From: a virus
Taxonomy: Duplodnaviria > Caudoviricetes
Strand: one strand, 5' to 3'
DNA length: 64,000 nt
Virus record (IMG/VR): IMGVR_UViG_3300019889_000166
Span: 1,533 to 65,532 of that record
The notes under the pieces are model-generated. The model had not been told where the DNA came from, did not search any database, and saw nothing but the letters and a program-made list of their open reading frames with translations. The position numbers were made by a program, and so were the translations under genes. This document shows positions 128-14,736 of this stretch, in pieces. Positions within the stretch are counted from its first letter, which is position 1. The number at the start of each line of letters is the position of its first letter.

Positions 128-141
128 CCGGTTAATCAACT

Positions 142-169: not shown

Positions 170-192
170 TTGCCGCAGAATCGGAGTCGGAA

Positions 193-495
193 GTGAGCAA
201 GTATGAGATCGATGACGAGGTGATTCGCGGCCTGGTCGACAACCGCGATCTACTGCCGCCCCGCCTGCTGACGGCGGTGGCCGCGCTGGAGGAGCAGATC
301 CCGCTCCCGACGCCGGTGAACGTCGGCGCGGTGGTGCGTACTGAGGGCGGCTTCCGTGGCGGCGTTTACCTGCGCTGGGCGCACGACAACGCCACCCACT
401 CGCCGTGGATCGCGGTCGGCGATCATGAGGAGCCGCACCGGACCGACGAGATCGGCCGCATCGTCGAAGTCTTGGCCGAAGGCGTGGATCTGTGA
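193..495 (+). CDS. hypothetical phage-type protein
   Basis: ORF; GTG start at 193 preferred over ATG 163; stop overlaps next start (GTGA). Confidence 0.7.
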   Translation: MSKYEIDDEVIRGLVDNRDLLPPRLLTAVAALEEQIPLPTPVNVGAVVRTEGGFRGGVYLRWAHDNATHSPWIAVGDHEEPHRTDEIGRIVEVLAEGVDL

Positions 496-944
496 GCGGC
501 CTCCTGAACTACACGACCACGATCCCGGCTGCCAAGACCATCAGCGAGATGCAGGCCCTGCTGGCGAAGGCGGGCGCGGACTCGATCGCGGTGCACTACA
601 CCGAGGGGTCCGCGTCCGGGCTGACGTTCAGCCTGCGCACGAAGTACGGGCCGCAGCTGTTCACGCTCCCGGTGGACGTGCCCGCGGTGCAGAAGGTGCT
701 GGCCGATCAGGGGCCGGCGAGCATGGCGCGGGCGAAGTTCTACAGCCCGGAGCATGCCGAGCGGGTCGCGTGGCGGATCTCGAAGACGTGGCTTGAGTCG
801 CAGCTCGCGCTGGTCTCGGTGCAGATGGCGACAATGGATCAGGTGATGTTGCCGTACCTGCACGTCCGACCCAACTTGACGATGTACGCGGCCTACCAGG
901 AGCAGCAGGACGTGCTGGCGCTGACGGATGGGCAGGAGTCGTGA
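492..944 (+). CDS. conserved phage hypothetical protein
   Basis: 150 aa ORF, GTGA overlaps both sides, motif AERVAWRI..W..SQ.A...QVMLPY. Confidence 0.8.
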   Translation: MSGLLNYTTTIPAAKTISEMQALLAKAGADSIAVHYTEGSASGLTFSLRTKYGPQLFTLPVDVPAVQKVLADQGPASMARAKFYSPEHAERVAWRISKTWLESQLALVSVQMATMDQVMLPYLHVRPNLTMYAAYQEQQDVLALTDGQES

Positions 945-1432
945 GCGGCTGGGAGAAGTACGTCGAGCAGGCGGCGGTGTCGCTTGACCCGGCCGCGTTC
1001 GATCGGACCATCGAGAACCACGGCGGGTACATCCGCCAGTTCCGGCGAGACCGCGCCACCGAGTTGGCCCGGGGCGTCCTCGCCGCTGTCGGCCCGCTGA
1101 TCGCGGAGGACGCCCGGGAGCGCATGGTCGCGGCGGCGGCGAGGGTGTTGAAGCGGGAGGGCTGTGAGGATGCGGCGGACAGGGCGCGCCGCGAGTACGC
1201 CGCGATGGACGACCGGCACCTGAACTCCTGCATCTGGATCGACCCGGGCCGCCAGGTCGGCGTGGCTTGCTTCGGCGGTACGCGCGTCCCAGTCGATCCG
1301 TTCATGGCGATCGTCGAGGAGGCGGGCGAGGATGCCGCGCGGGCCCTTTGGCCGTCGGTCACGGAGGCGCACGTTGCCGCTGGCAAGCTGTGGCGCGCCC
1401 GGTACCACGAGTGGCTGCGAGGCGCGCGATGA
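941..1432 (+). CDS. DUF433-like domain protein
   Basis: IWIDPGRQVGVACFGGTRVPV resembles the DUF433 signature; coupled to neighbours. Confidence 0.6.
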   Translation: MSGWEKYVEQAAVSLDPAAFDRTIENHGGYIRQFRRDRATELARGVLAAVGPLIAEDARERMVAAAARVLKREGCEDAADRARREYAAMDDRHLNSCIWIDPGRQVGVACFGGTRVPVDPFMAIVEEAGEDAARALWPSVTEAHVAAGKLWRARYHEWLRGAR

Positions 1433-2385
1433 CCGATCTAGTCCCGATCACGAGCCTGTCCGACGAGGTCTCGCAGTACGGCCCAACCCGCCGCGTGCAG
1501 GTGCTGGTCGCGGCCTGGCTCGCCTCCTTCAACGCGGTCAACACGCAGAAGGCGTACGCGCGGGACATGAAGATGTGGCTGCGGTTCTGCGAGGAGGCCG
1601 ACGTCGACCCGCTGGCGGTGCTCAGGGTGCATGTCGATGCGTGGAAGCAGCGCGGTGCCGGGTTCGACGCGCCCAAGCCACACCCGCCGTCCGTCGCCCG
1701 CCGCCTGTCCGCCGTGTCCAGTTGGTACGAGTACCTGGTGCAGGAGGAGGTGCTGGACCGGTCGCCCGCGGCGCACGTGAAGCGCCCGAAGGTCGACAAC
1801 CGGCACTCGACGACGTTCGGGCTCGACGAGCACGAGGCGCGGGCCGTGATCAAGGCAGCCGGCGAGTGCGGGCTGCGGGAGTTGGCGGTGGTGTCGGTGC
1901 TGTTGTTGACGGGGATCCGGAACAGCGAGCTGGTGGAGTCGGACGTCGAGGACCTCGGCCATGAGCGCGGCCACTTCACGTTGGATGTGACGCGGAAGGG
2001 CGGCGCGAAGCAGCGGATCGTGTTGACGCTGGCTGCGGTCGCTGCCCTGGAGGTGTACCTCGCGGATCGGAAGTCGGGCCCGTTGATCGTGACGCGGACG
2101 GGTGCGCGGATTTCGCGGGAGCAGGTGGCGCGGATCGTGCGGAAGGTCGCGATCGCGGCGAAGGTGCCGCACGCCGACAAGGTGTCGCCTCACTCGTTGC
2201 GGCATGCGTTCGTCACGCTGTCGATGGATGCTGGGGCGATGGTTGAGGATGTGCAGGACGCGGTGGGGCATCAGTCGTTGGATACGACGATGCGGTACAA
2301 GCGGAACCGGGGCCGACTGGAGAGGTTCCCGGGCGACAAGCTGGCACGGTTCGTGCTCGGCGGCGATGAGGAGACGGCATCGTGA
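1429..2385 (+). CDS. XerC/D-like tyrosine recombinase
   Basis: LLTGIRNSEL (catalytic R), TRKGG (K), SPHSLRHAF (HxxR), VGHQSLDTTMRY (H,Y); N-terminal NTQKAY..D SAM-like domain; ATG 1429 overlaps upstream stop. Confidence 0.95.
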   Translation: MTDLVPITSLSDEVSQYGPTRRVQVLVAAWLASFNAVNTQKAYARDMKMWLRFCEEADVDPLAVLRVHVDAWKQRGAGFDAPKPHPPSVARRLSAVSSWYEYLVQEEVLDRSPAAHVKRPKVDNRHSTTFGLDEHEARAVIKAAGECGLRELAVVSVLLLTGIRNSELVESDVEDLGHERGHFTLDVTRKGGAKQRIVLTLAAVAALEVYLADRKSGPLIVTRTGARISREQVARIVRKVAIAAKVPHADKVSPHSLRHAFVTLSMDAGAMVEDVQDAVGHQSLDTTMRYKRNRGRLERFPGDKLARFVLGGDEETAS

Positions 2386-2648
2386 GTGAGCAACTGGACG
2401 CCCTCGCGGGCTACTTCGACGCCATGGCGCAACAGCGCCTCGAAGACTCCGCGCGCCTGGCCAGCACCTTCACCGAGCGCGAACTGCTGCTGATCAAGGA
2501 GGCCGCAGTCATGGGCTATGTGCAGGGCGGGATGGGAGGCGGTCATCACGGCAACATCCCGCACGACAGAGACATCCTCCAAGAGGTCCTACTCGCCTGC
2601 AAGCAGCACCCGGACCTGTACCCGACCATCACCGGGGAGCCATCGTGA
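2382..2648 (+). CDS. hypothetical protein
   Basis: ORF with GTGA overlaps on both sides. Confidence 0.75.
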   Translation: MSEQLDALAGYFDAMAQQRLEDSARLASTFTERELLLIKEAAVMGYVQGGMGGGHHGNIPHDRDILQEVLLACKQHPDLYPTITGEPS

Positions 2649-2926
2649 GCGAACCAGCGATCAACATCATCGCCAACGACATCCCGTACTTCAGCGGCGA
2701 GACCAACCCGCTGAAGGCGCTCGAGTCCTCGGTGACGTTCTCCAGCATGGACTGGGGCGAGGCCCGCGACACGGCGTGGATCTACGGCATCGTGTGTGGC
2801 TGGGATGAGGATGACCCGGAGGAGGAGGGGGCGATGCCGGAGGTGGCTGCCAAGTTCGGCTGGACCGATGAGCAGGTGGCGCGCCTGCGGGGACTCCACG
2901 CCGAGTTCATCAGGATGGCCGAGTGA
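2645..2926 (+). CDS. hypothetical protein
   Basis: ORF with overlapping start/stop; AWIYGIVCGWD motif. Confidence 0.75.
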   Translation: MSEPAINIIANDIPYFSGETNPLKALESSVTFSSMDWGEARDTAWIYGIVCGWDEDDPEEEGAMPEVAAKFGWTDEQVARLRGLHAEFIRMAE

Positions 2927-3330
2927 CGATGCGTCTACTCCCCAGCAGGAACGACCTGCCCCTGCTGTGGGATGGGCGGGTCGTAGAGTGGCGCGGCTGG
3001 TCGGACGGTACGACGACCATGGCGCTGCACAATCCGAAGGAGCGCTGCACCGGGTGCGGATCCAGCGCTGAGCCAGCGATCAACGCCGGGATCATGGACG
3101 CCAAGCAAGGCGAGATGGTCGAGCACGAGCCGCTGAAGAAGACCAAGTCCGGCCGCACGTACCGAGGTCGGACCATCCTCGTTCCCGCCAATCGCTGGGC
3201 GAGGCTGTTCGCCTTCCGATGCCCGGACTGCCAGCAGGACGAGGTGTGGGACAAGGATGCCGACGAGTGGTGGACGCTGGACGAGTCCGACTACGGCAGC
3301 GATGGATCGACCGACCCGCGCCTGTTCTAG
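2923..3330 (+). CDS. hypothetical zinc-ribbon protein
   Basis: CxxC pairs CTGC and CPDC; last gene of coupled + operon. Confidence 0.75.
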   Translation: MTMRLLPSRNDLPLLWDGRVVEWRGWSDGTTTMALHNPKERCTGCGSSAEPAINAGIMDAKQGEMVEHEPLKKTKSGRTYRGRTILVPANRWARLFAFRCPDCQQDEVWDKDADEWWTLDESDYGSDGSTDPRLF

Positions 3331-4145
3331 CCCTCGCTGAGGTCGAGCTCCACCTCGTAGTGCAGCACGGCGCGATCCCCCGGCGAGATGACCCGTGACG
3401 CTTCGACGGGCCGCTCCCCCACCCAGAACACCCGGACCATCGAGATCACCGGTCCGGGTGTTTCCATGCGCAGCGCCTTGCGTTCGTCGTCGCGGGGCAT
3501 CCGGGCTTCCGCGTCGTGCGTCACCCGGGTGACTTCGAGCCCGAGGGAGAACAGTTCGGCGATGGTGCCGCCGGGCCAGGGCTGCTGGCCGGGGTCGATG
3601 AGCGGGGTTCCGCCGGCGAGCTTCCACGGGATCGCGGAGCGTTGCAGCTCCATGGGCTGGCCTTTGGCGTACTTCACGAACCGGCGGCGGAGGAGGTCGG
3701 AGCCTTCTGGGAGGAGGAGGCGGCGGGCGTCTTCGGCGGTGGCGGGTTCTTTGGTGACGTGGGCGTCGACGGTGTACTGCGGCCAGCTGATGCCGTGGTC
3801 TTCGGTGAACGCGGAGGTGAGCGGGTGGGGCTCGCCTGACTTGAGGAGGCGGAGGGTGCGGCCGTAGCGCTCAGCGTCGATGGGGCGTTGAGGGGGCGTA
3901 TCCCGGACGCGGGTTGCCGCGCCGCTGCGCTTGACGATCAGGGCTTCGCTTTCGAGGATGCCGAGCGCGTCGCGGATCGAGCCTCGGGACAGCCCGGTGC
4001 CTTCCATCATCTCGGCCTCGCTGGGGAGTTCCTCACCGGGGGTGAGCCTGCCGTCGTCGATCGCTTCGCGCAGGGACGCGGCTAGCTGACGGTACTTGGG
4101 CAGCTGCGCGTGGTGGTCGATCAGCGCGGTGAGGTCGATCGGCAT
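3327..4145 (-). CDS. GntR family regulator with UTRA domain (HutC subfamily; Kor/TraR-like)
   Basis: PKYRQLA..LR..I..G.L.PGEELPSE...SRGSIRDAL wHTH plus UTRA-like C-terminus; divergent from transfer genes; -10-like TACGCT 6 nt before ATG (leaderless). Confidence 0.92.
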   Translation of the reverse strand: MPIDLTALIDHHAQLPKYRQLAASLREAIDDGRLTPGEELPSEAEMMEGTGLSRGSIRDALGILESEALIVKRSGAATRVRDTPPQRPIDAERYGRTLRLLKSGEPHPLTSAFTEDHGISWPQYTVDAHVTKEPATAEDARRLLLPEGSDLLRRRFVKYAKGQPMELQRSAIPWKLAGGTPLIDPGQQPWPGGTIAELFSLGLEVTRVTHDAEARMPRDDERKALRMETPGPVISMVRVFWVGERPVEASRVISPGDRAVLHYEVELDLSEG

Positions 4146-4175
4146 GTGCTCAGCGTAACGGTCGGGGGCGGCGTG

Positions 4176-4547
4176 TCATTGCCACGCCTCACGCCAGTTC
4201 GGTCTGTCCCGGTGGACGGATGCGAGTTGCCGTACCACCGCCCAGGCCAGAATGCGCTCACCGAGGCGCTCGGGGTCCTTGTTCTCCAGGACGATGCTGC
4301 ATTCAGCCAAGATCGCCCGGTCGGCTGCGATCCGGGCCAGATCCTCAGTGGGCGTAGGCGGGCCAGGCATGTCCCAACCAGCCTGGAACTCGCCGCCGCG
4401 TCGGAGTTGCAGCATCCAACGAAGTTCGAGGTCTCCGCTGGCCGCTGTCGCGCTGCATGCGTCGATCGCTGTTTGCGCCTCCACGCATGCCCGCTGCCGC
4501 TCGTCCCAGATCGCGGTGAGCCACGCGGCGATGTCATCGGTCTGCAT
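4176..4547 (-). CDS. DUF6221-like actinobacterial protein
   Basis: DDIAAWL...LARIAADRAILAE...VRQLASVHRDRPNWREAW pattern; TAAGGT 6 nt before ATG. Confidence 0.7.
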   Translation of the reverse strand: MQTDDIAAWLTAIWDERQRACVEAQTAIDACSATAASGDLELRWMLQLRRGGEFQAGWDMPGPPTPTEDLARIAADRAILAECSIVLENKDPERLGERILAWAVVRQLASVHRDRPNWREAWQ

Positions 4548-4588
4548 GCCTAGACCTTACCCGCGAAACGCCGTGGAATGTTGACATG

Positions 4589-4617
4589 TTGACCTGTCTG
4601 TATAGGTGGCTTACCGT
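4589..4617 (+). promoter_or_regulatory. sigma70-type promoter of the transfer operon with overlapping GntR/HutC-type operator
   Basis: TTGACC-N17-TACCGT; imperfect palindrome ACCTGTCTGTATAGGT at 4592-4607. Confidence 0.65.
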
Positions 4618-4670
4618 AGGGGACTACGCGCGCGCAGTGCGCGTATGTGCGCGGGAGAGAGAGGCTCGGG

Positions 4671-4925
4671 ATGGCTCACCAGCAGCGGCTCAAACTGACG
4701 CTCCGCAACGTCGTGAACGACCGCACCTGGACCGGAAAGACCTACACCCGCGAGATCACCGCCGACCCCGACGACCACGCCGTCATCCGCGACTACCTCG
4801 AGCAGATGGCCCGCAGTCTCGACCACCGCACCGGTGAGCCGTGGTGGCGCGTCCAGTACGAGGTCCGCGTCGAAGGTCTCGACGAGACGTGGCGCGAGCT
4901 CACCGTCCCGGGCGCGGCGCTCTGA
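4671..4925 (+). CDS. hypothetical protein, first gene of transfer operon
   Basis: ATG 4671 after GAGAGAGG; TGATG overlap with next gene. Confidence 0.75.
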   Translation: MAHQQRLKLTLRNVVNDRTWTGKTYTREITADPDDHAVIRDYLEQMARSLDHRTGEPWWRVQYEVRVEGLDETWRELTVPGAAL

Positions 4926-5200
4926 TGGCCGCCGAGGTGGTCCAGTTCGAGCGGCCGGAGCCGAAGCCGACGCGCGCGGAGAACGCGCACAAGAAGCGGC
5001 GGCTGGAGATCATCGGCAAGCGCATGGCGACGGCGTCCAGCCCCCGCGAAAAACTCGACGTCGCGCTCGACTACTTCCGGGCGACGGCCGCCGACCACCA
5101 CGTGAACCAGGCCAAGGCCGGGATTGCCACCGAACACCTCGCCGACCGGCTGATCGCCTCGGCCGACCAACTCGCGAACACGATCCGGAGGAACCGATGA
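4925..5200 (+). CDS. hypothetical helical protein
   Basis: MAAEVVQFERP...; coupled both sides. Confidence 0.75.
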   Translation: MAAEVVQFERPEPKPTRAENAHKKRRLEIIGKRMATASSPREKLDVALDYFRATAADHHVNQAKAGIATEHLADRLIASADQLANTIRRNR

Positions 5201-5568
5201 GCGCCATCGAAACCACTGACGGCCGCGCGCAGGACGTTGTCCGGCCGGTCGCCACCATCACCACGCTCCCCCGCGCCACGCCTGATCTCGCGCCGCTGCC
5301 GATCCCGACCCTGGCGCAGGTGGGTGACCTGATCTGCCCGCCTGACCTGTGGTCCGACGACCGGCCCAGCCTGCGGAAGGTGTGGCTGTACGGCGTCTAC
5401 GGACGCTGGACAGCTGCCGACGGGTTCTGGCGTTACGCCGGCGCCACCTTCGCGACCGTGATGCTCGTGCCCATCGGCGTTCTCTACCTCCTGGCGTGGA
5501 TCCTCGAACGACCCTCCCGCGTCGCCGTAGTCGCTGTCCTGTACGGCCTGTACCGACTCGCCTTCTAA
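5197..5568 (+). CDS. membrane protein, spread (Spd)-like
   Basis: ATG after GGAGG; two C-terminal hydrophobic segments. Confidence 0.7.
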   Translation: MSAIETTDGRAQDVVRPVATITTLPRATPDLAPLPIPTLAQVGDLICPPDLWSDDRPSLRKVWLYGVYGRWTAADGFWRYAGATFATVMLVPIGVLYLLAWILERPSRVAVVAVLYGLYRLAF

Positions 5569-5585
5569 CGGAAAGGAATCTGACC

Positions 5586-6029
5586 ATGACGCTCACGCTG
5601 GGCGGCATCGCAGCAGTCGCCCTTGCCATCGCGCTCACCTTCATGTTCAAGAAGATGGCTAAGCGCGCCACCGTCTACCTGATGCTGATCGCCGGGGTCG
5701 CCGGGATCGGCGGGATCCTCGGCTCGATCGTGGACCGGATCGTCAACAGTGCTGTCGGTGGTGCGGCCTCCGCGACTGAGCGGCTGTCCGGGCAGGCGAT
5801 CGGTGGCTTCATCATCATCGCTGTCATGTCGATCGCGCTGTGGCCGCACGTCAAGCCGAAGGGCCAGCCGCCGACGAGGCTCACGCCGTGGATCGCGTTC
5901 GTCTACGGCGCTGTCCTGTACGCGGTCGGTGGGGTCTTCTCCGAGCTGGCCGGGCTGTCAACGAACATCGTCGCGCAGGGCGCGAACTTCCTGCTCTCCG
6001 GCGCTACGGCGTTCATCCAGGGGTTCTGA
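5586..6029 (+). CDS. four-TM membrane protein, spread (Spd)-like
   Basis: SD GGAAAGGA; four hydrophobic helices. Confidence 0.75.
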   Translation: MTLTLGGIAAVALAIALTFMFKKMAKRATVYLMLIAGVAGIGGILGSIVDRIVNSAVGGAASATERLSGQAIGGFIIIAVMSIALWPHVKPKGQPPTRLTPWIAFVYGAVLYAVGGVFSELAGLSTNIVAQGANFLLSGATAFIQGF

Positions 6030-6032
6030 CTG

Positions 6033-6722
6033 ATGCGCCGCTTCCTGCTCTGGCTCGGGCTCACCGTGGTGACGGTTGCCGCCGTGGCCGCGTCGTTCTC
6101 GACGTTGGCGGGGCTGGCGGCGTTCACCGGGTGGGGTGAGCGGCTGTCGTGGCTGCTCCCGGCGTCGCTGGATGCGTTGGGCATGACGGCGTGCCTCGTG
6201 TGGCTCGACAGTGCGGCTGCGGAGAAGACCCGGACCTATGCCCGCTGGATGACGTGGGGTGCGGCGGGGCTGAGCATCGTCGGCAACGGTGTCGGGCATC
6301 TCGCCTCGACCGGGCATCTGACCCAGGGCCTGCTGCTCGTCGTCCTCGTCGGTGCCGTCCCGCCGGCTGCTCTGGCTACGACGGTCCACCTGATCGTCCT
6401 CGTCTCGTCCTCCGAGCCCGTCCCGGACGCAGCTCCCGTCCCGGCCGAGGAGTCTGTCCCCCTCCCCGTCCCGACCAAGGTGGTCGCCAAGCCGTCCCCG
6501 AAGAAGCCGCCAGCGAAGAGGGCGGCCCCGAAGCCGTCCCCGTCCCCGGACGAGACCGTCAACGATGTCGAGCTCCAAGGGGCGCGGCATGCGGACCGGG
6601 CGTACCGGGCCGCGAACGACAACAAGCCGATCACCCGTGACGCCCTGAAGGCCGCGCTCGCTCCGTGCGGGACGACGAAGGCGACGGCACTGCTGGCGGC
6701 ATTGAAGAGGGAGGCAGCCTGA
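6033..6722 (+). CDS. DUF2637/Spd-type membrane protein with C-terminal HTH-like region
   Basis: AASFSTL..LA...GW...SWLLP..LD...SIVGN..GH...AVPP four-TM pattern, Pro/Lys linker, ITRDALKAAL..GTTKA tail. Confidence 0.75.
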   Translation: MRRFLLWLGLTVVTVAAVAASFSTLAGLAAFTGWGERLSWLLPASLDALGMTACLVWLDSAAAEKTRTYARWMTWGAAGLSIVGNGVGHLASTGHLTQGLLLVVLVGAVPPAALATTVHLIVLVSSSEPVPDAAPVPAEESVPLPVPTKVVAKPSPKKPPAKRAAPKPSPSPDETVNDVELQGARHADRAYRAANDNKPITRDALKAALAPCGTTKATALLAALKREAA

Positions 6723-7627
6723 TGGAGATCCTGATCGTGGCGATGATCATGACCGTGGTCGTGAAGCGGGGCGTCGAGGACGTCTGGCACACGGCTCGGG
6801 GCGGCACTCCGCCGCGGTATGCGGCAGCGTCGGCCCGGCGCAAGTCCGGTGCGGCTGGCCGGTACTGGGGCCAGCTGTGGGACGACACGTGGTCGGACTT
6901 GCTGACGAGGCACAACGACCGCCGCTCCCCCACTGCCTCGTCTCGTCCTCGCGGCGCGGCCACCGTCTTCCTGTCGAACCTGTGGCGGGACGGCTGGGTC
7001 GCGGCCGAGCGGAGTCGGTCCTCGAAGGCGACCCGTCCTCGTCCCGGGCAGCAGACCGTCCCGGGGACCGTCGTCCCCAATGCCGGGGACCGTCCTGAGG
7101 ACGGGGACGGGGACGGGACGGGGACGGTCCCGCAGGACGAAGCGGTCTCCGTCCCGGACGAGGACGAGGACGGACCCCAGGACGGTCCCGAGGACGAGGA
7201 CCGGCAGCAGGACGAGGACGAGCAGGACGACAAGCAGGACGACCCCGACTCCGGACCGGACTCCGGGCCGGACCAAGACATCACTCCCCCCGCCACACCC
7301 ACCACGGAAGGACCCACCACCATGAGCATCACCATCCCCAGCGCCGACACCGAAGGATTCGAGCCCACCATCAACTGGGGCGAGACCTCCGCCCAGGGGT
7401 ACCGCGCCATGATCGGCCAGGTCGAACTCGCCATCTCCAAGCTGAGGAACGCCGAGGTGACCGACGAGGGCATCTACGCCGACCTCACCGACGTGATGGA
7501 CATGACGTCTGGGGCGGCCCGGGCAATGGACAACGCCATGACCAAACTCGCAGCGCACCGCATCGTGGCCGAGGCGCTCCACGCCGCCCCGGGTGCAGGC
7601 AAGAAGGAGTTCATGCTGCAGGGCTGA
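6722..7627 (+). CDS. transfer-associated protein (N-terminal TM, acidic low-complexity linker, helical C-terminal domain)
   Basis: ATG 6722 overlaps upstream stop; internal GGAAGGA..ATG at 7322 in frame. Confidence 0.75.
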   Translation: MEILIVAMIMTVVVKRGVEDVWHTARGGTPPRYAAASARRKSGAAGRYWGQLWDDTWSDLLTRHNDRRSPTASSRPRGAATVFLSNLWRDGWVAAERSRSSKATRPRPGQQTVPGTVVPNAGDRPEDGDGDGTGTVPQDEAVSVPDEDEDGPQDGPEDEDRQQDEDEQDDKQDDPDSGPDSGPDQDITPPATPTTEGPTTMSITIPSADTEGFEPTINWGETSAQGYRAMIGQVELAISKLRNAEVTDEGIYADLTDVMDMTSGAARAMDNAMTKLAAHRIVAEALHAAPGAGKKEFMLQG

Positions 7628-7640
7628 CCAACGACCAAGG

Positions 7641-7675
7641 GCGCCCCGGGCCGGTCAGTCCGGTCCGGGGCGTTT
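7641..7675 (+). terminator. stem-loop upstream of traB
   Basis: GCGCCCCGGGCCGG-TCAGT-CCGGTCCGGGGCGT followed by TT. Confidence 0.6.
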
Positions 7676-7796
7676 GACATGCCGGGAGGGGTCGCGTACG
7701 CGCGCACGTGCGCGCAGCCGCACCTTGGGCGGCATTCGGATGACTCGCAGGAACCGGACTCCGGACCGGACCGGACTATCAGGAAGGGGCACGTGA

Positions 7797-9800
7797 ATGA
7801 GTAGGAAGACGAGGGAAGGAGAGCGTCTGGCTCAGGACTTGGCCAGGGTGATCGCGAGTGGCAGCTCGACGCCCGACCGGCGGCTGACGAAGGCGCAGGC
7901 GCTGAAGATCAAGCAGGAGGACGCGCGGCTACTGGAGGAGCGGCGGGCGAACAGCATGCGGCGCCTGTTGCTGAAGCAGTACGCGCCGTGGATCGTCGCG
8001 GCCTCGGTGTTCGTCGTCGGCGCGATCTGCTGGCTACTCCGCTGGATCTACTCCCCGTTGACCGCGGTGTCGCTCGCGGTCCTGGTGGCGGCGGCTGGCT
8101 GCTGGGCGGCGTGGATGATCGGGCGCCGCGCGAAGAAGTGGCGGACCCGGGTCCACTGGGCTGCCGGGGTCGGGTCGTCCTGGCTGATCTGGACCGCGGG
8201 GACAGGACCGTCCTGGCGGGCCGCCCTCGTCCTCGTCCTCGGGACCGTCCTCGTTGCGGGACGGTGGTGGCAGGCGAACCGGATCCCGATTCCGAAGAAG
8301 CCGAACCGGGGGACCGTCCCCGTCCCGGAGGACCAAAGCATCCCCGTCCTATGGGAGCTCAACCTCGGGGGGCAAGGGTGCGTCCTCGCCGGGGCCGCCC
8401 TCACCGCCTACGACGATGAGCCGAAGTCGGGCTGCGACACGCACCGCATCAACCTCAAGCCCGGCAAGCAAACGATCACGTGGGCACTGTCGCAACTGGA
8501 GATCATCGCGGGCGGACTGCTGACCCCGGTCGAGCGGGTCCTCCTCGAACCGGACCCGGACCGCAACCCGATCCACGTCAAGCTGACCATCGTCGAGCAC
8601 TCCCCGATCGAGGAGACGGTCCCCTACCGCGGCGCTCGGCTCGTCGGGGACCATCGGAACCTGATCGAGGTCGGCCCGTACGGCGACGGCGACGGGTACG
8701 CGAACTGGCGGATGTGGGCGCCGGGCGCGAAGCCGATGACCGGCAGTTGGCTGTCGGGGCTGATCATCGCCGGGACTGGGATCGGGAAGTCGCGGCTGAT
8801 GGAGTTGCTGGCCGCCGGCTACATGGCGTCGGGCAACGCGGTCGTGTGGTTCATCGACCCGCAGCTCGGGGCGTCGTCGCCGGACCTGCAGGAGTACGCC
8901 GACTGGTACGTGAGCGGTGAGGGTACGGCGAAGATGTTGACGGCGCTGGAGTTGATCGCGGCCGCGCGGGAGAAGGAGAACAGTGCCAAGAGGTGGACGC
9001 GGTTCGATCCGTCTCCGGAGCGTCCGGGGATCGTGGTGTTCATGGACGAGTTCCACCGGACGGTTGAGCGGTATGCGAACCGGCTGGAGGATCTGGCGCG
9101 GACGACGCAGAAGACCGGGATCTCGATCGTCGGGCTGACGCAGGATGCTTCGCTGGAGTCGCTCGGGAAGAACACGCTGCGGGCGTCCATGCTGGCGAAT
9201 CTGATCGTGATGAAGACCGGGATGAACACGACGAAGAACCTCATCCCGGGCTTGACGGTGGATCCGGAGTTGTTGCCGAAGATCCCTGGCTACCTCTACA
9301 CGATCGGGGAGCGGACGGCTCCGGGTCGGGCGGAGTACGTCGAGGACCCGGCGCTCTGGTTCAAGCAGTACCCGATGCCGAAGCTGGATGCGTTGTCGGC
9401 GAATGCGGCGGGTGACCTGTACGGGATGCGCCGCGAGGAGACTGCGGCCGAGTTGGAGGCGAACCGTCAGTGGGTTGAGCAGATGAGCAGCGAGGGCTTC
9501 CAGCCTGAGCTGCCCGAGCCTGACCTGGATGACTGGAAGCCTGAGCCGGCGGAGCCGCGCGCGTTCGAGGTGGTGCAGTTCCCGTCGGCAGTGGCACCTC
9601 CGGAGAAGCCTGCCCGTGAGCGGGTGCTGGTGGCGGTGGCGCAGGGGACGACGCGGACGAGGGAGATCGGGATCGCGGTCGGGCTGGAGAAGACGCAGCT
9701 GCACGACGTGCTGAAGGAGTTGCTGGAGGCGGGCGAGCTGGAGCGGCCGACGGCTGGGGTGTATCAGATCGCGGGGGTTGTGTCGCAGCCGGAGAGGTAG
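7797..9800 (+). CDS. traB: TraB-like FtsK/SpoIIIE conjugative DNA translocase
   Basis: N-terminal TM helices, Walker A AGTGIGKS, FIDPQ, Walker B VVFMDE, LTQ, IPGY motif, C-terminal winged helix (TREIGIAVGL..TQLHDVLKELLEAGELER...GVY). Confidence 0.88.
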   Translation: MSRKTREGERLAQDLARVIASGSSTPDRRLTKAQALKIKQEDARLLEERRANSMRRLLLKQYAPWIVAASVFVVGAICWLLRWIYSPLTAVSLAVLVAAAGCWAAWMIGRRAKKWRTRVHWAAGVGSSWLIWTAGTGPSWRAALVLVLGTVLVAGRWWQANRIPIPKKPNRGTVPVPEDQSIPVLWELNLGGQGCVLAGAALTAYDDEPKSGCDTHRINLKPGKQTITWALSQLEIIAGGLLTPVERVLLEPDPDRNPIHVKLTIVEHSPIEETVPYRGARLVGDHRNLIEVGPYGDGDGYANWRMWAPGAKPMTGSWLSGLIIAGTGIGKSRLMELLAAGYMASGNAVVWFIDPQLGASSPDLQEYADWYVSGEGTAKMLTALELIAAAREKENSAKRWTRFDPSPERPGIVVFMDEFHRTVERYANRLEDLARTTQKTGISIVGLTQDASLESLGKNTLRASMLANLIVMKTGMNTTKNLIPGLTVDPELLPKIPGYLYTIGERTAPGRAEYVEDPALWFKQYPMPKLDALSANAAGDLYGMRREETAAELEANRQWVEQMSSEGFQPELPEPDLDDWKPEPAEPRAFEVVQFPSAVAPPEKPARERVLVAVAQGTTRTREIGIAVGLEKTQLHDVLKELLEAGELERPTAGVYQIAGVVSQPER

Positions 9801-9835
9801 GGAAAACGGTTGCCGGGATTGCCTGAGATTGGGGC

Positions 9836-9873
9836 TTGACTATAGTCACATCGGCCCGATACTATAGTCACAT
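9836..9873 (+). promoter_or_regulatory. leaderless promoter with tandem operator
   Basis: TTGACT-N18-TACTAT-N6-ATG; ACTATAGTCACAT at 9839 and 9861. Confidence 0.8.
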
Positions 9874-10135
9874 GACGACGCGGACGGTAGCCAAGTGCGA
9901 GACCTGCAAAGGCCGGGGGTTCGACACCCAGCACGACGAGTTCGAGACCCCGGTCCGGGTCGAGTGCGACGACTGCGACGGACGCGGCGAGAGCGAGATC
10001 CCCACCGCCGAGGAGCTGGCCCAGCAGGTCACCGACCACGAGGCCCGGATCGCGATCCGCAACGAGGAGCACTTCAGCAAGGGCTGGCACGACAAGCTCT
10101 GCAGCACCACCTACTGCCGGCTCGGGCTGGCCTGA
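9872..10135 (+). CDS. small zinc-finger protein (DnaJ-like CxxCxGxG)
   Basis: CETCKGRG and CDDCDGRG; leaderless ATG. Confidence 0.8.
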   Translation: MTTRTVAKCETCKGRGFDTQHDEFETPVRVECDDCDGRGESEIPTAEELAQQVTDHEARIAIRNEEHFSKGWHDKLCSTTYCRLGLA

Positions 10136-10155
10136 GAGAAGGGAAGGGCTTTCCC

Positions 10156-10443
10156 ATGAGCATCATCGGATTCGTACTCTCGGCGCTCCTCCTCGTGGTG
10201 GCCTGGCTCGCGTGGGCAGGCACCCGCGACCTGAAGAGAGCGCTGGCGAACAAGCGGGCTCGGCAGATTGCGTCCTGCTGGGTCACCGTCAGGCCGCACG
10301 CTCGCTGCGAGGCCAGAGGGCACTGGCCGCGCGAGGTGGTTCGGCTGGCGGACGGTACGACAGTCGCCCACATCTGCCGTCGCTGCGACCACGACTGGGC
10401 GGACGAGCACTGGGTGAAGACGGGCCACGAGGTGAAGCCGTGA
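10156..10443 (+). CDS. small membrane-anchored protein with Cys/His motif
   Basis: SD GGGAAGGG, N-terminal TM, C..RGH...CRRC. Confidence 0.7.
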   Translation: MSIIGFVLSALLLVVAWLAWAGTRDLKRALANKRARQIASCWVTVRPHARCEARGHWPREVVRLADGTTVAHICRRCDHDWADEHWVKTGHEVKP

Positions 10444-10658
10444 GCGACATGATGAGCACCAGCGAGGTCGCCGCGCTGTACGGCGTCACGAAGATGACCG
10501 TGATCCGGTGGGTCGAGGCCGGGCGGTTCGACCCTGCGCCTGAGAGGATGCACACGGGGACCGGTCAGCGTCGCCCCTACCTGTTCGACCGGGCGGCGGT
10601 GCTGGCCCAGCGGGAGCGGGAGGTCGGGGAAGGGCTTTCCCGGCCGTCTGGCAAGTAG
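10440..10658 (+). CDS. excisionase-like/MerR-type HTH DNA-binding protein
   Basis: MSTSEVAALYGVTKMTVIRWVEAGRF. Confidence 0.85.
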   Translation: MSDMMSTSEVAALYGVTKMTVIRWVEAGRFDPAPERMHTGTGQRRPYLFDRAAVLAQREREVGEGLSRPSGK

Positions 10659-10665
10659 CACCACA

Positions 10666-10697
10666 GCGGCGAGCAGGTTCGATTCCTGCTGTCGCAC
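10666..10697 (+). other. tRNA T-arm-like minihelix
   Basis: GCAGG-TTCGATT-CCTGC extended by GCGGC(G)A/TGTCGC; no D or anticodon arm. Confidence 0.5.
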
Positions 10698-10740
10698 GAT
10701 CCCGCTCACTCAGGGCGGGCCAGGGGAGGAACCCAAACGC

Positions 10741-11484
10741 ATGAAGTTCAACACCAAGCTCGGTCGCACCGTGGCCGTCGTCGCAGCTGCAGGCTTCGCG
10801 GTCGTCGGCGGCATCACGACCAGCGAGGCGGCCGTTCCGCAGCCCGAGCGTCAGGCGGCCCTGCCGGCGAACTCGGTCTACCACGCGCAGATCAACGACA
10901 CGGTCGAGGCTGACCTGATGAAGACCCCGGCGCTGTCGGTCTGGACCACGTCGATCAACAAGTGGGCCATCACCGAGGACAAGCTGACCCCGTCCGTCGC
11001 GGAGAAGCTGAACAGCAAGGTCGGCGAGGGCTGGGCGGTCGACATCCCAGCGAAGGCGATCAACAAGATCGGCGGCGGGTTCGTCGCCAACGCCACCGTG
11101 CTGGGCACGTTCGAGCTCCCCCCGGTGGGGCTGTACTCGATCAACACGCAGGCAGTGTTCGACCGGGTGAACGCTGATCACGCCGACTACCTGGCCCCGA
11201 CCACGGAGACGATGCCGACGCTGGCGCTGCGGTTCACCACCAGCGAGGGTGGCGTCGGTGACGCGGGCACGATCATGGGCGCGCAGATCTCCAAGGCCGG
11301 GTTCGTCGAGCTGACTGGTTCGAGTGTCGCGTCGGTGCGGCCGGGGGCATCCCCGCTGACGGTCACGGTCTACGGGTTCGGCTACAACGAGGATCGCTCC
11401 GCGTTCGGCTCGGTCGATGCGACTCCGGGCGCCAAGGCACAGTTCACCGCGGCCGCGAAGATCCTGATCGACCAGATCGGCTGA
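10741..11484 (+). CDS. secreted beta-rich protein (moron)
   Basis: Sec signal MKFNTKLGRTVAVVAAAGFAVVGGITTSEA; SD GGGGAGGA. Confidence 0.85.
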   Translation: MKFNTKLGRTVAVVAAAGFAVVGGITTSEAAVPQPERQAALPANSVYHAQINDTVEADLMKTPALSVWTTSINKWAITEDKLTPSVAEKLNSKVGEGWAVDIPAKAINKIGGGFVANATVLGTFELPPVGLYSINTQAVFDRVNADHADYLAPTTETMPTLALRFTTSEGGVGDAGTIMGAQISKAGFVELTGSSVASVRPGASPLTVTVYGFGYNEDRSAFGSVDATPGAKAQFTAAAKILIDQIG

Positions 11485-11508
11485 CCGGGATCGGATAGGA
11501 GGAGACCT

Positions 11509-11607
11509 GTGAACACTGTCCTGCGGATCCTCGCTGGGCTCCTGGCCGTGGCCGTAATGGCAGGCCTCCTTCTTGGCGGCGCGGCGTTCGGCTGGCTAGG
11601 GCCGTAG
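11509..11607 (+). CDS. 32-aa single-TM peptide (not in ORF track)
   Basis: SD AGGAGGAG then GTG; MNTVLRILAGLLAVAVMAGLLLGGAAFGWLGP. Confidence 0.7.
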   Translation: MNTVLRILAGLLAVAVMAGLLLGGAAFGWLGP

Positions 11608-11622
11608 CTGGAACGCAGAAGA

Positions 11623-11656
11623 CGTGCCCACCTCCCGGACGGGGGAGGTGGGCACG
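11623..11656. terminator. bidirectional terminator between convergent operons
   Basis: Perfect 14-bp stem CGTGCCCACCTCCC/GGGAGGTGGGCACG. Confidence 0.85.
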
Positions 11657-11677
11657 CTGCTGTTTGCGGGGGTCTGG

Positions 11678-11776
11678 CTACCCGACTGCGAGGTCGAACC
11701 TGACGCCGAGCAGGAGAAGGATGGCCAGTACGACGAGCAGGCCGATGAGGAACCAGAGCCAGCCGGGGACCGTCAT
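11678..11776 (-). CDS. 32-aa single-TM peptide after holin (not in ORF track)
   Basis: MTVPGWLWFLIGLLVVLAILLLLGVRFDLAVG; ATG 1 nt after holin stop, GGAGG upstream. Confidence 0.7.
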   Translation of the reverse strand: MTVPGWLWFLIGLLVVLAILLLLGVRFDLAVG

Positions 11777-11777
11777 G

Positions 11778-12011
11778 TCAGGCCTCCAGCTTCTCGCCGC
11801 CACCCATCGACGGCGTGCCGTTGGCGAAGCCGGCGGCCAGGGACTTCAGCAGCGACAGCAGCGCACCGCCGATGGCGACGCCGCCGAGGGCCTGGTAGTC
11901 GAGCATGAACGCGTTGCTGACGGCATCGACGCCGATGACCGCGATCGCCGACTGGGCGGCGGTGGAGACGGCGCGCTCAGCGGCGCCCTTCCAGAAAGCC
12001 TTGGTCCACAT
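11778..12011 (-). CDS. holin (r1t-type)
   Basis: MWTKAFWKGAAERAVSTAAQSAIAVIG...ALLSLLKSLA signature; follows endolysin. Confidence 0.9.
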   Translation of the reverse strand: MWTKAFWKGAAERAVSTAAQSAIAVIGVDAVSNAFMLDYQALGGVAIGGALLSLLKSLAAGFANGTPSMGGGEKLEA

Positions 12012-12032
12012 GTCTGTTGCTCCGGTCTCCGC

Positions 12033-12989
12033 TTACGCGGTCTGGACGTCGGTCGCGGTGACCGGCGAGTCGGGGTCGTCCACGAGGCCCTGCACGAGGG
12101 CCTTGATGTCGGCGAGCGCCTCGTCCTGCTCGACGTCGCGGAGGCGGTCGGCCTCGGAGCGGATCGCGTTGCGGTCGTCGGAGTTGCGCTGCTCCTCGAT
12201 GCCCTGCGCCCAGCGGTCGCCGGTGGACTTGATGAACGCGGCGAGGGTCGTTTCGATGCGGTTCTGCTGGGCCTTGAGGTCGCTGTACTGGGACACGGTG
12301 AGCTCCTCCGTGGGGGGCTTCGGGGTTGTGCCGGGTGGGGTGGTGGGCTTGCCGGGGCCGAAGAGGATCGCCTTGGCCTTCGTCTCGATGTAGGACCAGT
12401 TGATGTTGCCGGGGTCACCGTGGCTGTTCTCGGGAACGTGCTGGTGGCCGCACCAGCCCTTGAAGTTGCGCCACTGGTCGAAGCTGAACCGCTGGCTGGC
12501 GGACTTCCCGTACGAGGCCGGGTAGGCGCGGAACGACTCCCCGATCTGCTCGGGGCCTTCGACGCGGATCTTGTTGACCCGGTACTGGTAGGCGACGAAC
12601 TCGGCTACCTCGTCGAGCGCCCACTGTGGTGCGGCGGGCCAGTAGATGTGGGCCCGGCCTGCCTTCTTCCAGCTGTCCGAGGTGGCCTTGTCGCAGGTCC
12701 CGACCAGTTCGATCTGGATGCAGTCCTGGGTGTTGGTCTGCACTCCGCCGGACTCGTTGCGCAGAGCCCGAGCCGACATGGTGTCGGGGAAGTGCTGCGT
12801 CCAGACGAGCCGCTTTTGGGTGAAGTCGGGAAGCCCGGTGGCTGTCGGGGCGGTCGCCCCTCCGCCGTACCACGGCAGGGATGTGCCCTCGGTGGTGTGG
12901 ATGACGCCGATGTCAGGGTCGATCGTCGAGCCCTTGTAGTCGTCGGCGAACCAGTACTTGGCTGGCTTCTGGATGATGGGTGCTGCCAT
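12033..12989 (-). CDS. endolysin, amidase_2-like
   Basis: VIHTTEG, IQIELVG, GHQHVPENSHGDPG zinc-amidase motifs; Pro/Thr linker, coiled C-terminus. Confidence 0.88.
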   Translation of the reverse strand: MAAPIIQKPAKYWFADDYKGSTIDPDIGVIHTTEGTSLPWYGGGATAPTATGLPDFTQKRLVWTQHFPDTMSARALRNESGGVQTNTQDCIQIELVGTCDKATSDSWKKAGRAHIYWPAAPQWALDEVAEFVAYQYRVNKIRVEGPEQIGESFRAYPASYGKSASQRFSFDQWRNFKGWCGHQHVPENSHGDPGNINWSYIETKAKAILFGPGKPTTPPGTTPKPPTEELTVSQYSDLKAQQNRIETTLAAFIKSTGDRWAQGIEEQRNSDDRNAIRSEADRLRDVEQDEALADIKALVQGLVDDPDSPVTATDVQTA

Positions 12990-13010
12990 GAGTGGGCTCC
13001 CTCGGTTGGG

Positions 13011-13823
13011 CTACTTGAGGACGCAGACGAGGATCTTGACCTGCGTCAGCGGGTCGGTCGTGGTGACGGTGAGCTCTTGCAGTTCGCCGGTCATCGCGGC
13101 GCACTTCGCCGCCGACGAGTCCGGGCCAGCGGGCCCCTGGTCGCCGGTGGCGCCTTGCGGTCCGGTGGGTCCAGTGGGGCCGGGCACGGTGCTGTCCGCC
13201 CCGTCGGCGCCTTTGCAGTCGTTGCGTTGCGCGCAGTACGACGTGAGGGCCTGGTCGATCATCGTGGACAGCCGCTCGTCGCTGACCGGGGGCGCGTCCT
13301 TGCCAGCGGCACCGGTCTTCCCGACGCACCTGTCCTCGGTGCAGTACGACGCGACGGAACTCTTGACCAGGGGTTGGAGCTCGGCCGCAGTCGGGGTGCG
13401 CCCATCCTTCGGGCGGACCACCTTCGGTGCGGCGACCCGGGCGATCTGCTCGACCTGGCTCGCGGTGAGGGTCGGCTGGTAGGTGCGAATCGCGGAGGCG
13501 ACGATCGTGTGAACGGCGAGTTCTTCGTCTGGAGTGAACTCGTCGGTCTGCGGTGGCGGCGGGGTGGTGAGGGTCGGCACCGGGACGGGCGCCTTGCCTG
13601 CCGCGATGAGCCGCCGGTTCGCTTCCTTCGCCGCGTCGACCGCGCCCTGGGCTTGGAGTTGCGCCTGCGATGCGGCGGTGAGCGCCTGGTCGGCGGTGGC
13701 GCCGTTGGTTTCGACGTCGCCGGACAGGTTGAACACCTGCGCGAAGAGGTAGCCGAAGGTGAGCACGAAGACGGCAAGGGCCCCCAGCCCGTAGCGGCGC
13801 GCGCTGCGGATCTTCCTGTTCAC
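13011..13823 (-). CDS. membrane-anchored collagen-like protein of lysis cassette
   Basis: N-terminal TM, YC...C motifs, GPTGPTGPQGATGDQGPAGP. Confidence 0.8.
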   Translation of the reverse strand: MNRKIRSARRYGLGALAVFVLTFGYLFAQVFNLSGDVETNGATADQALTAASQAQLQAQGAVDAAKEANRRLIAAGKAPVPVPTLTTPPPPQTDEFTPDEELAVHTIVASAIRTYQPTLTASQVEQIARVAAPKVVRPKDGRTPTAAELQPLVKSSVASYCTEDRCVGKTGAAGKDAPPVSDERLSTMIDQALTSYCAQRNDCKGADGADSTVPGPTGPTGPQGATGDQGPAGPDSSAAKCAAMTGELQELTVTTTDPLTQVKILVCVLK

Positions 13824-14275
13824 GGGTCAACGCCCTCCGGCAATGGGATGTTGTGGTCGGCGAGCGACATCCTCAGCAGGTAGGTGCGCCGACGTTCTTG
13901 GTCGAGGAGCCGTTCGAGGCTCTTGATCTCGCTCGAGTGGCCTTGCCGCATCTCTCGCACTTCGGCTGCGTGCCGGGCCTGCTCTGCACGGAACTCTTCG
14001 TCGCGGGCCTGGGCTGCTTCGCGCAGCTCCTTGCGTAGCTCCTCGACCTGCAGTTTGAGGTCTTGGACGTCGCGGCGTAGTTCGCCCTCGGTGTCTTGCT
14101 CGCGGGCCTCGGCTGCGTCGGCGCGTTTCTTGTGGCCCTCGACGTCTTGCTGGCGGCCTTCTTTGTACTGCTTGGCGGCGTAGGCGAGGAGGGTGGCGAC
14201 GAGTCCGATTCCACCGACGGGGGCGGCGATGGTGGAGGTCGTGACTTCCAGAGCCGCGATCAGCGAGGTGATCAC
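13820..14275 (-). CDS. TM + coiled-coil protein of lysis cassette
   Basis: GTG 14275 overlapping upstream stop; TM then long coiled coil. Confidence 0.75.
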   Translation of the reverse strand: MITSLIAALEVTTSTIAAPVGGIGLVATLLAYAAKQYKEGRQQDVEGHKKRADAAEAREQDTEGELRRDVQDLKLQVEELRKELREAAQARDEEFRAEQARHAAEVREMRQGHSSEIKSLERLLDQERRRTYLLRMSLADHNIPLPEGVDP

Positions 14276-14736
14276 TGTTCGTCGCCCTTCCGGGGCACGG
14301 GTCCCCTGACGTAGCAGAGGATGGCGTGCAGGGCGGTGATGACGAGGGCTTGTGTGACGCCGCGCCAGATGCTGCCCTGTTGGTCGGCGACGTCGGTGCG
14401 GGAGTATTCCCAGACTGCTTGTGCGGTGGCGATGGAGAACATGCAGTACATCGCGGCGCAGAGGAGGTGACCGAGCCAGACTGCGGCGTGGCGCCTGACG
14501 ATGAGCCCGAGGATGAGGGTTGCGCCGCCGGCGAGGAACGCGGCGCCCCAGGTGTGGAGGTCGGCGAGCTCGATCACGATTTTGAGCGACTTCGCGGCGA
14601 CTGCCGACTCGGGGGTGTGGAGGTAGTCCCATCCGGTGACGAGTGCGTGGACGGCGAGGATCCACGACAGGAGCCGGGCCATGTGCCACGGGATGCTGGT
14701 TGTGGCTAGCCGGGCGGTGAAGTCGTCAAGGCTCAC
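14272..14736 (-). CDS. four-TM membrane protein (holin-like)
   Basis: GTG 14736; four hydrophobic segments. Confidence 0.75.
   Translation of the reverse strand: MSLDDFTARLATTSIPWHMARLLSWILAVHALVTGWDYLHTPESAVAAKSLKIVIELADLHTWGAAFLAGGATLILGLIVRRHAAVWLGHLLCAAMYCMFSIATAQAVWEYSRTDVADQQGSIWRGVTQALVITALHAILCYVRGPVPRKGDEQ

Follow-up and report, generated by a model that had tools for sequence, protein, structure and literature searches.

A plasmid-like TraB cassette and a temperate siphovirus very probably form one element in a phage lineage with relatives in Kribbella

Does a plasmid-type cassette for the transfer of double-stranded DNA belong to the phage next to which it lies, and could it move the DNA of that phage from cell to cell? 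The question is raised by a stretch of 64,000 nucleotides (here called the window), which comprises bases 1533–65532 of the IMG/VR virus record IMGVR_UViG_3300019889_000166. In it, a GntR-regulated operon ending in the gene of a TraB-like ATPase runs towards the lysis genes of a siphovirus. A sequence-only reading of the window had proposed that the two parts form a possible conjugative prophage, whose excised circle could travel both in virions and through TraB. Genes were called by third-position G+C (GC3) and then scanned with Pfam, PHROGs and NCBIfam. These scans confirmed the features on which that proposal was built, namely the GntR/UTRA regulator, the run of small genes, the ATPase with its predicted membrane anchor, FtsK-like core and winged helix, and the hairpin against the lysis cassette. 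Between 11.7 and 59.5 kb, the minus strand carries the full gene set of a temperate siphovirus, and the window represents almost the entire genome of this phage, which infects a mycelial actinomycete and has relatives in Kribbella.

The source record is a single contig of 65,532 bp, rated 100% complete by CheckV, and the G+C content is about 68% throughout the window. Its first 146 bases recur at the contig end with three mismatches (97.9%), and a minus-strand gene for a second GntR regulator (GntR2) spans the contig junction, being intact only when the molecule is closed. On these two grounds we take the record to represent a molecule of about 65.4 kb that is circular or circularly permuted; since it is the whole element, flanks that might reveal an att repeat are absent. 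The scans of the called genes found no host-like gene, relaxase, type IV secretion system (T4SS) gene or RepSA, RepAM or Prim-Pol gene in the record, in agreement with the sequence-only reading, which had seen no host gene, relaxase, T4SS gene or RepSA/rolling-circle Rep. No tRNA gene is present in the record, and a megablast search of positions 3300–11700 against phage and plasmid collections returned zero matches.

Relatives of the element provide the first line of evidence that its two parts belong together. A TraB-seeded search yielded five loci, whose contigs were compared with the query. A 62,034-bp IMG/VR record and a 62,006-bp contig from a metagenome-assembled genome (MAG) labelled Mycobacterium sp., a label that may be a binning artefact, are one element with different start points (circular permutations), and one of these two contigs has an exact 141-bp end overlap. 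The 62,477-bp contig of a Kribbella MAG contains element genes only, with a gene order that continues across the contig ends. Further TraB-seeded relatives are a 26-kb fragment and a 117-kb contig of Kribbella qitaiheensis. Five diverged relatives retain the order of GntR1 (the regulator next to the operon), Spd-like genes, TraB, lysis and tail fibre genes, Dit, tape measure and so on to the portal. Among the four full elements, identities are 59–67% for TraB, 64–76% for the portal and 70–74% for Dit. Since the TraB identities parallel those of the portal and Dit, the association between cassette and phage is an old one.

The K. qitaiheensis contig places a member of the lineage in a host chromosome. 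Host genes extend to 41,008 and are followed by a tyrosine integrase, the phage, TraB (88,305–90,308), GntR1, a second tyrosine recombinase (int1) and GntR2, after which host genes resume at 100,912. A 30-bp direct repeat (29/30, E 9e-9) lies at 41,002–41,031 and 100,895–100,924, and no comparable internal copy was found in the searched stretch of 84–103 kb, which spans the TraB–lysis interval. In 40/40 other Kribbella genomes examined, the two host genes that flank this prophage are 13–31 bp apart. Because there is one att pair, and because the flanking genes are so closely spaced elsewhere, the whole of the ~59.9 kb is a single insertion that parted two neighbouring host genes.

This arrangement bears directly on the idea that an AICE (an integrative, conjugative element of actinomycetes) and a prophage inserted in tandem, or were excised together as a cointegrate, without any lasting partnership. 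Such a history would account for the two integrases and the two GntR regulators, and a phage backbone without the cassette does exist (see below). We nevertheless regard it as very improbable, and rejected it on the single att pair, the 40/40 closely spaced flanking genes and the conserved relatives: the same junctions recur in elements diverged to ~60% protein identity, so the relatives do not show the two parts as independent insertions. In the query, a search for a nested att pair around the cassette, or one shared with the candidate attP, gave nothing above 13 nt other than an operator-like 19/20 match described below; the interval between traB and the lysis genes (9.8–11.7 kb) has no repeat of more than 13 nt in common with the candidate attP or the flanks of int1. 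In addition, the plasmid-like segment has no Rep, and int1 lies in its middle and not at its end; the int1 homologue of the integrated relative is likewise not adjacent to an att site.

Contigs from soil samples cross the junction as well. Contigs from four runs (two samples from two studies, where one of the two soil samples may be the source of the record itself) cover positions 1–20,000 at similar depth. Those of one sample bridge traB to the lysis genes at 8303–11076, 10380–12114 and 11179–13016, and those of the other bridge 9053–11048 and 11197–12305. Taking together the conserved order, the single att pair, the lack of host DNA and the bridging contigs, we conclude with high confidence that a single element comprises both the TraB module and the siphovirus, as the sequence-only reading had supposed.

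Whether this element resides as a prophage or as a plasmid is a separate matter. Three independent metagenome assemblies are circular or permuted and lack host flanks, and the Streptomyces plasmid-prophage pZL12 offers a precedent for an extrachromosomal form, in which int1 would serve as a multimer resolvase and TraB would move the plasmid. We consider this improbable for the present lineage. No scanned frame yielded ParA/ParB or a plasmid Rep, the query has an integrase (int2) at the classical end-of-prophage position, one relative is chromosomal with att repeats, and replicating or packaged phage DNA would also be expected to give circular assemblies. The query has the properties of an integrative temperate siphovirus, with an end integrase, a repressor candidate, and virion and lysis genes, and the att pair and empty site of this type are established in the K. 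qitaiheensis relative.

The protein at the centre of the cassette matched the NCBIfam model plasmid_TraB (NF041214) over residues 61–489 (E 1.5e-21). An AlphaFold (AF2) model built on 39 relatives has a mean pLDDT (predicted local distance difference test score) of 83.4, and in Foldseek searches the best matches to its core are TcpA, the coupling protein of pCW3, and the motor of FtsK (E 1.8e-11 to 5e-10, probability 1.00), with EssC/EccC ranking after these; a profile search of PDB sequences gave weak matches to HerA and FtsK. The Walker A motif reads GTGIGKS and a DE motif is also present; residues G328, G330, K331 and S332 of Walker A and the catalytic glutamate E418 are invariant in the 39-sequence alignment, and full length is kept across these diverged sequences. 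An N-terminal membrane anchor is predicted from hydrophobic segments at residues 62–109 and four long helices in the model (54–160). At the other end, residues 606–658 are modelled with a helix-helix-helix-strand-strand pattern that fits a winged helix, and profile matches of the C-terminus to winged-helix proteins are weak (E 0.015–0.5). In tblastn searches, 108 plasmids of actinomycetes proved to carry relatives, including one annotated as traB. When 50,697 phage records were searched, no more than six matched, which belong to four large lytic Streptomyces phages and align with about 20% of the protein, and a canonical plasmid TraB used as the query had no actinophage match.

The surroundings of this gene are those of a Streptomyces-type TraB, that is, a GntR regulator and Spd-like membrane proteins. 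GntR1, which is 64–86% identical among the four full elements, and for which the query protein shares 64–73% with every full-length relative, is a candidate Kor-like repressor of the spd-traB operon. As the sequence-only reading had it, the regulator is divergent from the operon; what that reading had not included is a DUF6221 gene between GntR1 and the promoter, forming a leftward pair with it. No consensus promoter was called in a promoter scan of the divergent region (4548–4646). The description of the operon as one of small membrane proteins also held in part: several of the products have predicted membrane helices, and not all of the small proteins are membrane proteins. Of the four small genes that come first, which are Spd-like by position and have no family match in Pfam, PHROGs or NCBIfam, the hydrophobicity scan predicts one helix in the third product and several in the fourth, and the first product is 51–64% identical in relatives. 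The DUF2637 protein that follows matched DUF2637 proteins on four small Streptomyces plasmids in a tblastn search, one of which (15 kb) has a GntR gene divergent from traA-traB-...-DUF2637; the same search against the 50,697 phage records gave no match. The 320-amino-acid protein encoded before traB is 36–42% identical in relatives and has no family match. A perfect 23-nt inverted repeat (7179–7201 and 8229–8251, within a longer 67-nt match of 81%) has one arm in the acidic low-complexity part of this gene and the other where traB encodes its membrane helices; the repeat may have arisen because Asp/Glu codons are complementary to Val/Leu codons.

Beyond GntR1 the plasmid-like segment extends towards the integrase end of the phage. 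After the int2 arm come GntR2, a divergent plus-strand operon of small genes ending in int1, three small genes and GntR1. The int1 gene lies ~1 kb upstream of the GntR1 gene, and its homologues are 76% identical in K. qitaiheensis and 55% in the Kribbella MAG. The divergent promoter between GntR2 and the operon ending in int1 (record bases 294–352, left of the window) bears the perfect 16-bp palindrome ACTTGTTGCAACAAGT and two further direct ACTTGTTG half-sites. A 19/20 match to this operator region occurs at 62886–62905, in the intergenic stretch on the integrase side, where it overlaps a promoter-like site. The plasmid-like segment and the integration end of the phage may thus be co-regulated through a near-copy operator, which we offer as a lead only. 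None of int1, int2 and GntR2 had figured in the sequence-only reading. Beside the int1 homologue of the Kribbella MAG contig, positions 46443–47590 hold two genes, one for a GmrSD_C/HNH nuclease and one for a DUF4326 protein, that may be cargo with a role in defence within that element's plasmid-like segment.

From these features, and from what is established for Streptomyces plasmids (PMC4447253, PMC3218068, PMC2440964), a working model can be proposed. GntR1 would keep the divergent spd-traB operon off, and its relief would switch the operon on. A TraB hexamer at the membrane would then bind a site on circular phage DNA, either excised or injected and circularised, and together with Spd proteins would pump the double-stranded DNA across septa or hyphal contacts, with the Spd proteins extending transfer to spread through septa. 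In a multigenomic, compartmented host, the prophage could in this way reach adjacent compartments, or mycelia in contact, and would not need to lyse its host. The transferred DNA would replicate by phage genes and integrate by the phage integrase, in keeping with a cassette that has no Rep; the sequence-only reading had likewise suggested that the phage replicon replaces an AICE Rep, and the phage does have replication genes of its own. As a guess, int1 might resolve multimers of the transferring circle. That the cassette, of plasmid or AICE type, is a heritable and dispensable part of the phage which moves phage DNA seems to us a proposition in even balance, and the transfer function of the TraB cassette taken for itself stands at that level or a shade lower. 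More tentative, and in our view less likely than either, is the full picture of a widespread soil lineage of dual-mode ‘conjugative prophages’ in mycelial actinomycetes, in which a 62–65 kb circle would be both packaged and pumped by TraB and Spd under two GntR switches, one of them acting at the integrase end as well, with int1 resolving multimers.

Several observations weigh against a transfer role. The TraB-like protein scores 76.6 bits against the NCBIfam model, where the curated cut-off is 800 and a bona fide plasmid TraB reaches 832.9; neither it nor any other protein in the record matched Pfam FtsK_SpoIIIE (PF01580) at E values up to 10; and its tblastn identity to plasmid TraBs is just 22–33%. 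Given a score so far under the cut-off and the lack of a PF01580 match, the protein is judged from its sequence to be a distant relative of plasmid TraB and not an equivalog. Scans for 8-mer clusters in the query and in three of its relatives, together with a repeat search at 9700–11760, revealed no grouping of short repeats of the clt/TRS type close to traB, and imperfect or dispersed sites would escape such searches; the repeat clusters that did appear all lie within low-complexity coding DNA. In addition, four of the five cassette-bearing relatives were found with TraB itself, so that this biased count cannot measure how often the cassette occurs. A portal-seeded scan of IMG/VR gave seven fragments, of which five were searched for TraB; the one reaching the traB side holds the 3' end of traB at its first bases. 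Finally, among 98 Kribbella genomes three have a related portal, two of these bear TraB, and the third prophage (portal 74%, Dit 62–64%, RecE-like 70%) is without the whole cassette, TraB being absent by a protein search in which 26/26 candidates were scored and a profile search in which 12/45 were. Within ~2.6 kb of its lysis genes, this prophage, which the sequence-only reading had not known, has three small genes and an XRE-type regulator, followed by host genes. As a related prophage exists without it, the cassette is an accessory block that the phage can dispense with.

Some of these observations can also be read as signs of a captured plasmid or AICE cassette, which is decaying or serves as cargo for another purpose, such as plasmid or phage exclusion, host growth arrest of the kil/kor type, mobilisation of host DNA, or none, and does not transfer phage DNA. 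The dispensability shown by the TraB-less relative and the missing clt-like site agree with this, as do the recombinase of its own, expected of a formerly independent element, and the variable-cargo location, where neighbours differ between relatives and have their own promoters. We consider this reading rather unlikely. The GntR, Spd-like, DUF2637 and TraB set is retained at 40–73% identity in relatives, and this retention of the whole set, along with the invariant ATPase motifs and the preserved length of the 39 diverged sequences, speaks against decay; nor does anything point directly to a role in defence or exclusion. The cassette itself occupies the cargo zone that separates the lysis genes from the attP/integrase end, accompanied by the second recombinase and the second GntR regulator.

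If the cassette does work in transfer, a chromosomally integrating phage would gain another way to spread, one that needs no lysis and suits filamentous hosts. The boundary between prophages and AICEs would be blurred, with effects on models of lysogeny, immunity and gene flow in soil actinomycetes, and the precedent of pZL12 and pFP4 would extend from rare Streptomyces plasmid-prophages to ordinary integrative phages of a different family. K. qitaiheensis CGMCC 4.7215 is a cultured lysogen of this lineage. Similar elements have probably been under-counted, because this TraB clade escapes PF01580, the profile reported for the AICE survey (PMC3218068).

Indications of a wider distribution come from several searches. 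The TraB-clade profile matches strongly in 3/98 Kribbella genomes. A contig of 3.1 kb has a strong match, and a metagenome scan with the profile found eight loci, mostly on contigs of 1.5–11 kb; an 8.9-kb metagenome contig carries a 34% identical TraB relative and a DUF5131 gene. In a protein-family search we obtained 55 clusters including the query, and those with a source name are all hypothetical proteins apart from one evident misnomer. Fifteen of the 54 other clusters are on contigs of 51–117 kb, nine of them on contigs of 58–63 kb. In two other Kribbella genomes, frames of 632–643 amino acids (one at 9233–11131 of its locus) match the TraB profile at the ATPase core alone (E ~1e-11 to 1e-12), and are presumably ordinary AICE or plasmid TraBs.

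Table 1. Features of the plasmid-like segment, the cargo zone and the phage backbone (positions in the window; aa, amino acids)
Feature	Position	Strand	Remarks
int1, XerC/D-like tyrosine recombinase	1267–2385	+	Pfam Phage_integrase E 1.9e-24; NCBIfam XerC/XerD-like, below cut-offs
Three small genes 3' of int1	2382–2648, 2645–2926, 2923–3330	+	High-GC3 frames; third matches PHROG 9156 (family with no assigned function), first two without family match
GntR1	3327–4145	-	GntR/HutC-type with UTRA; Pfam E 1.2e-15 and 1.8e-17
DUF6221 gene	4176–4547	-	Pfam E 3.6e-10; first of leftward pair with GntR1
Divergent promoter/operator region	4548–4646		TTGACA and TTGACC hexamers, partial palindrome; putative function
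Four small genes, Spd-like by position	4647–4925, ~4920–5200, ~5170–5568, ~5550–6029	+	Frame-specific GC3 profile
DUF2637 membrane protein, Spd-type	6033–6722	+	Pfam E 2.5e-8
320-aa protein	6665–7627	+	N-terminal membrane helix, acidic low-complexity middle, conserved C-terminal part
TraB-like membrane-anchored FtsK-fold ATPase, 667 aa	7797–9800	+	Last gene of operon
Sigma-70-like promoter	9836–9865	+	TTGACT, 18 nt, TACTAT; inside twice-repeated palindrome, just 3' of traB
Zn-ribbon protein	9836–10135	+	Cargo
Cargo gene without assigned family	~10140–10443	+	
HTH_17 excisionase/MerR-like protein	~10446–10658	+	Cargo
Secreted 247-aa protein (predicted)	10741–11484	+	Cargo
Hairpin terminator	11623–11656		14-bp perfect stem, 6-nt loop, T-rich tail; facing lysis genes
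Lysis cassette	11678–12989	-	41-aa protein, holin (11778–12011), endolysin (12033–12989)
Virion genes	13011–39794	-	Tail fibres, Dit, tape measure, tail tube, connectors, capsid, decoration protein, protease, MuF-like protein, portal, large terminase; Pfam, PHROGs and NCBIfam scans
Portal	36655–38316	-	
Large terminase	38337–39794	-	
Early/replication region	40747–59454	-	Replication initiator (45512–46048), DUF5131, RuvC-like, clamp-like, exonuclease
RecT and RecE-like proteins	within 56094–57482; 56957–57889	-	Recombination pair inside early region
cI-like helix-turn-helix repressor candidate	59990–60427	+	Weak LexA_DNA_bind and PHROG regulator matches
int2, tyrosine integrase	61431–62447	-	Pfam Phage_integrase E 1.6e-21; classical end-of-prophage position
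Candidate attP	62663–62926		A+T-richer intergenic stretch; includes operator-like promoter site
GntR2, second GntR/UTRA regulator	63307–64000	-	Crosses contig junction; N-terminus at record start

The features of the window are listed in Table 1. Between traB and the terminator, a sigma-70-like promoter is predicted to drive four cargo genes, and similar TTGACT...TAGACT promoters are found at the same place in two relatives. Cargo content between traB and the lysis genes varies among relatives. In two relatives (at locus positions 6662–7242 in one; the other is the Kribbella MAG element) a different two-gene cargo comes right after traB, with a strong promoter directly before its ATG; it encodes a 70-amino-acid protein and a 134-amino-acid protein with a weak winged-helix match, and it marks the traB–lysis interval as a swap zone.

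In the phage backbone, the holin was identified by Pfam (Phage_r1t_holin, E 5.4e-15), and both holin and endolysin have PHROG matches. The K. qitaiheensis homologue of the cI-like repressor candidate is 81% identical and lies beside the integrase of that prophage. In the relatives, the position of int2 is taken by a non-orthologous tyrosine integrase adjoining the att repeat, and the candidate attP of the query was placed by the break point of the integrated relative. One small gene lies between this stretch and GntR2. A T5orf172/MUG113 (GIY-YIG-like) gene at 62324–62662 overlaps the annotated 5' end of int2 in a different frame, and the true int2 start is probably further downstream than annotated. 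The large terminase and adjacent small genes have no tblastn match (E 1e-6) in three full-length relatives, while the neighbouring portal is 66–76% identical in the same three, which suggests that the packaging module has been swapped within the lineage. Between the head and connector genes, a protein of 902 amino acids (28057–30765) has two Laminin_G_3 (concanavalin-like lectin) domains; the Kribbella MAG element shares it (55%), but the element of K. qitaiheensis and that of 62.0 kb lack it. Inside the head-gene block, positions 34835–35542 encode an HNH endonuclease, in a stretch where the G+C-based caller found no gene.

The layout of the cassette resembles the kor-tra-spd modules of the Streptomyces conjugative plasmids and AICEs pSVH1, pIJ101 and pSAM2 (PMC4447253, PMC3218068, PMC2440964). 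In both, a GntR regulator is transcribed away from genes for small membrane proteins and an FtsK-like ATPase, and a relaxase and a T4SS are lacking; the membrane anchor of the ATPase is predicted here, and its C-terminal fold pattern fits the winged helix of those systems; the DUF2637 protein is shared with small Streptomyces plasmids. In contrast to Streptomyces plasmids and AICEs, the Spd-like genes are upstream of traB and not downstream, the segment has neither Rep nor its own att pair, no clt was recognised, and the carrier is a virus. AICEs are described as combining Int, Rep (RepSA, RepAM or Prim-Pol) and Tra in one unit of 9–25 kb (PMC3218068). Int and Tra are present here, with no Rep in the segment by Pfam, NCBIfam or PHROGs, and the att pair of an AICE, usually at a tRNA gene, has no counterpart among the tRNA genes, internal att sites or flanking repeats searched for.

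Phage-borne parts of such systems have also been reported. SpdB2-like genes occur on the actinophages phiC31 and VWB, where they were suggested to help the spread of phage DNA (PMC4447253, Thoma et al. 2015); these phages are described with the Spd homologue alone, whereas the query has a TraB motor, a regulator and several Spd-like genes. FtsK-family ATPases are encoded by large lytic phages, including Streptomyces phages Coruscant, Wofford, Elmer and Mandalore and many Bacillus phages. Unlike the query, the four Streptomyces phages are lytic and of 120–134 kb, and the similarity covers ~20% of the protein around the Walker region at 30% identity.

The closest precedents are the plasmid-phages pZL12/phiZL12 and pFP4, which are reported to conjugate as episomes and also to give infective particles (PMC4170104). 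[quoted passage not shown] In its GenBank entry (GQ919031, ‘Streptomyces phage ZL12’; 90,435 bp, circular), an FtsK/SpoIIIE-like gene, 71c, and two large neighbours adjoin structural genes, with a GntR gene close by. As in pZL12 and pFP4, the present lineage combines a complete tailed phage with an FtsK-like transfer gene on one molecule. The differences are that pZL12 is a 90-kb plasmid prophage with ParA/ParB from Streptomyces, whereas the present elements are of 62–65 kb, have no partition genes or plasmid replicon indicating extrachromosomal maintenance, include one chromosomally integrated member and belong with another host genus. The translocases barely align (BLASTP E 0.12), and the query is closer to plasmid TraB than the pZL12 gene is (E 1.5e-21 versus 1.7e-4 against the NCBIfam model). 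In a literature search that had most subscription journals outside its scope, no publication turned up that describes an integrative temperate phage with a TraB cassette. The sequence-only reading had not recognised the combination as a described class; on this point pZL12/phiZL12 and pFP4 (PMC4170104, PMC3583192) correct it, since a tailed phage with TraB-type transfer is a kind already described. What sets the present lineage apart is the integrative lifestyle with att sites, the classical GntR-Spd(DUF2637)-TraB layout, another host genus and a divergent TraB clade that is sizeable and uncultured.

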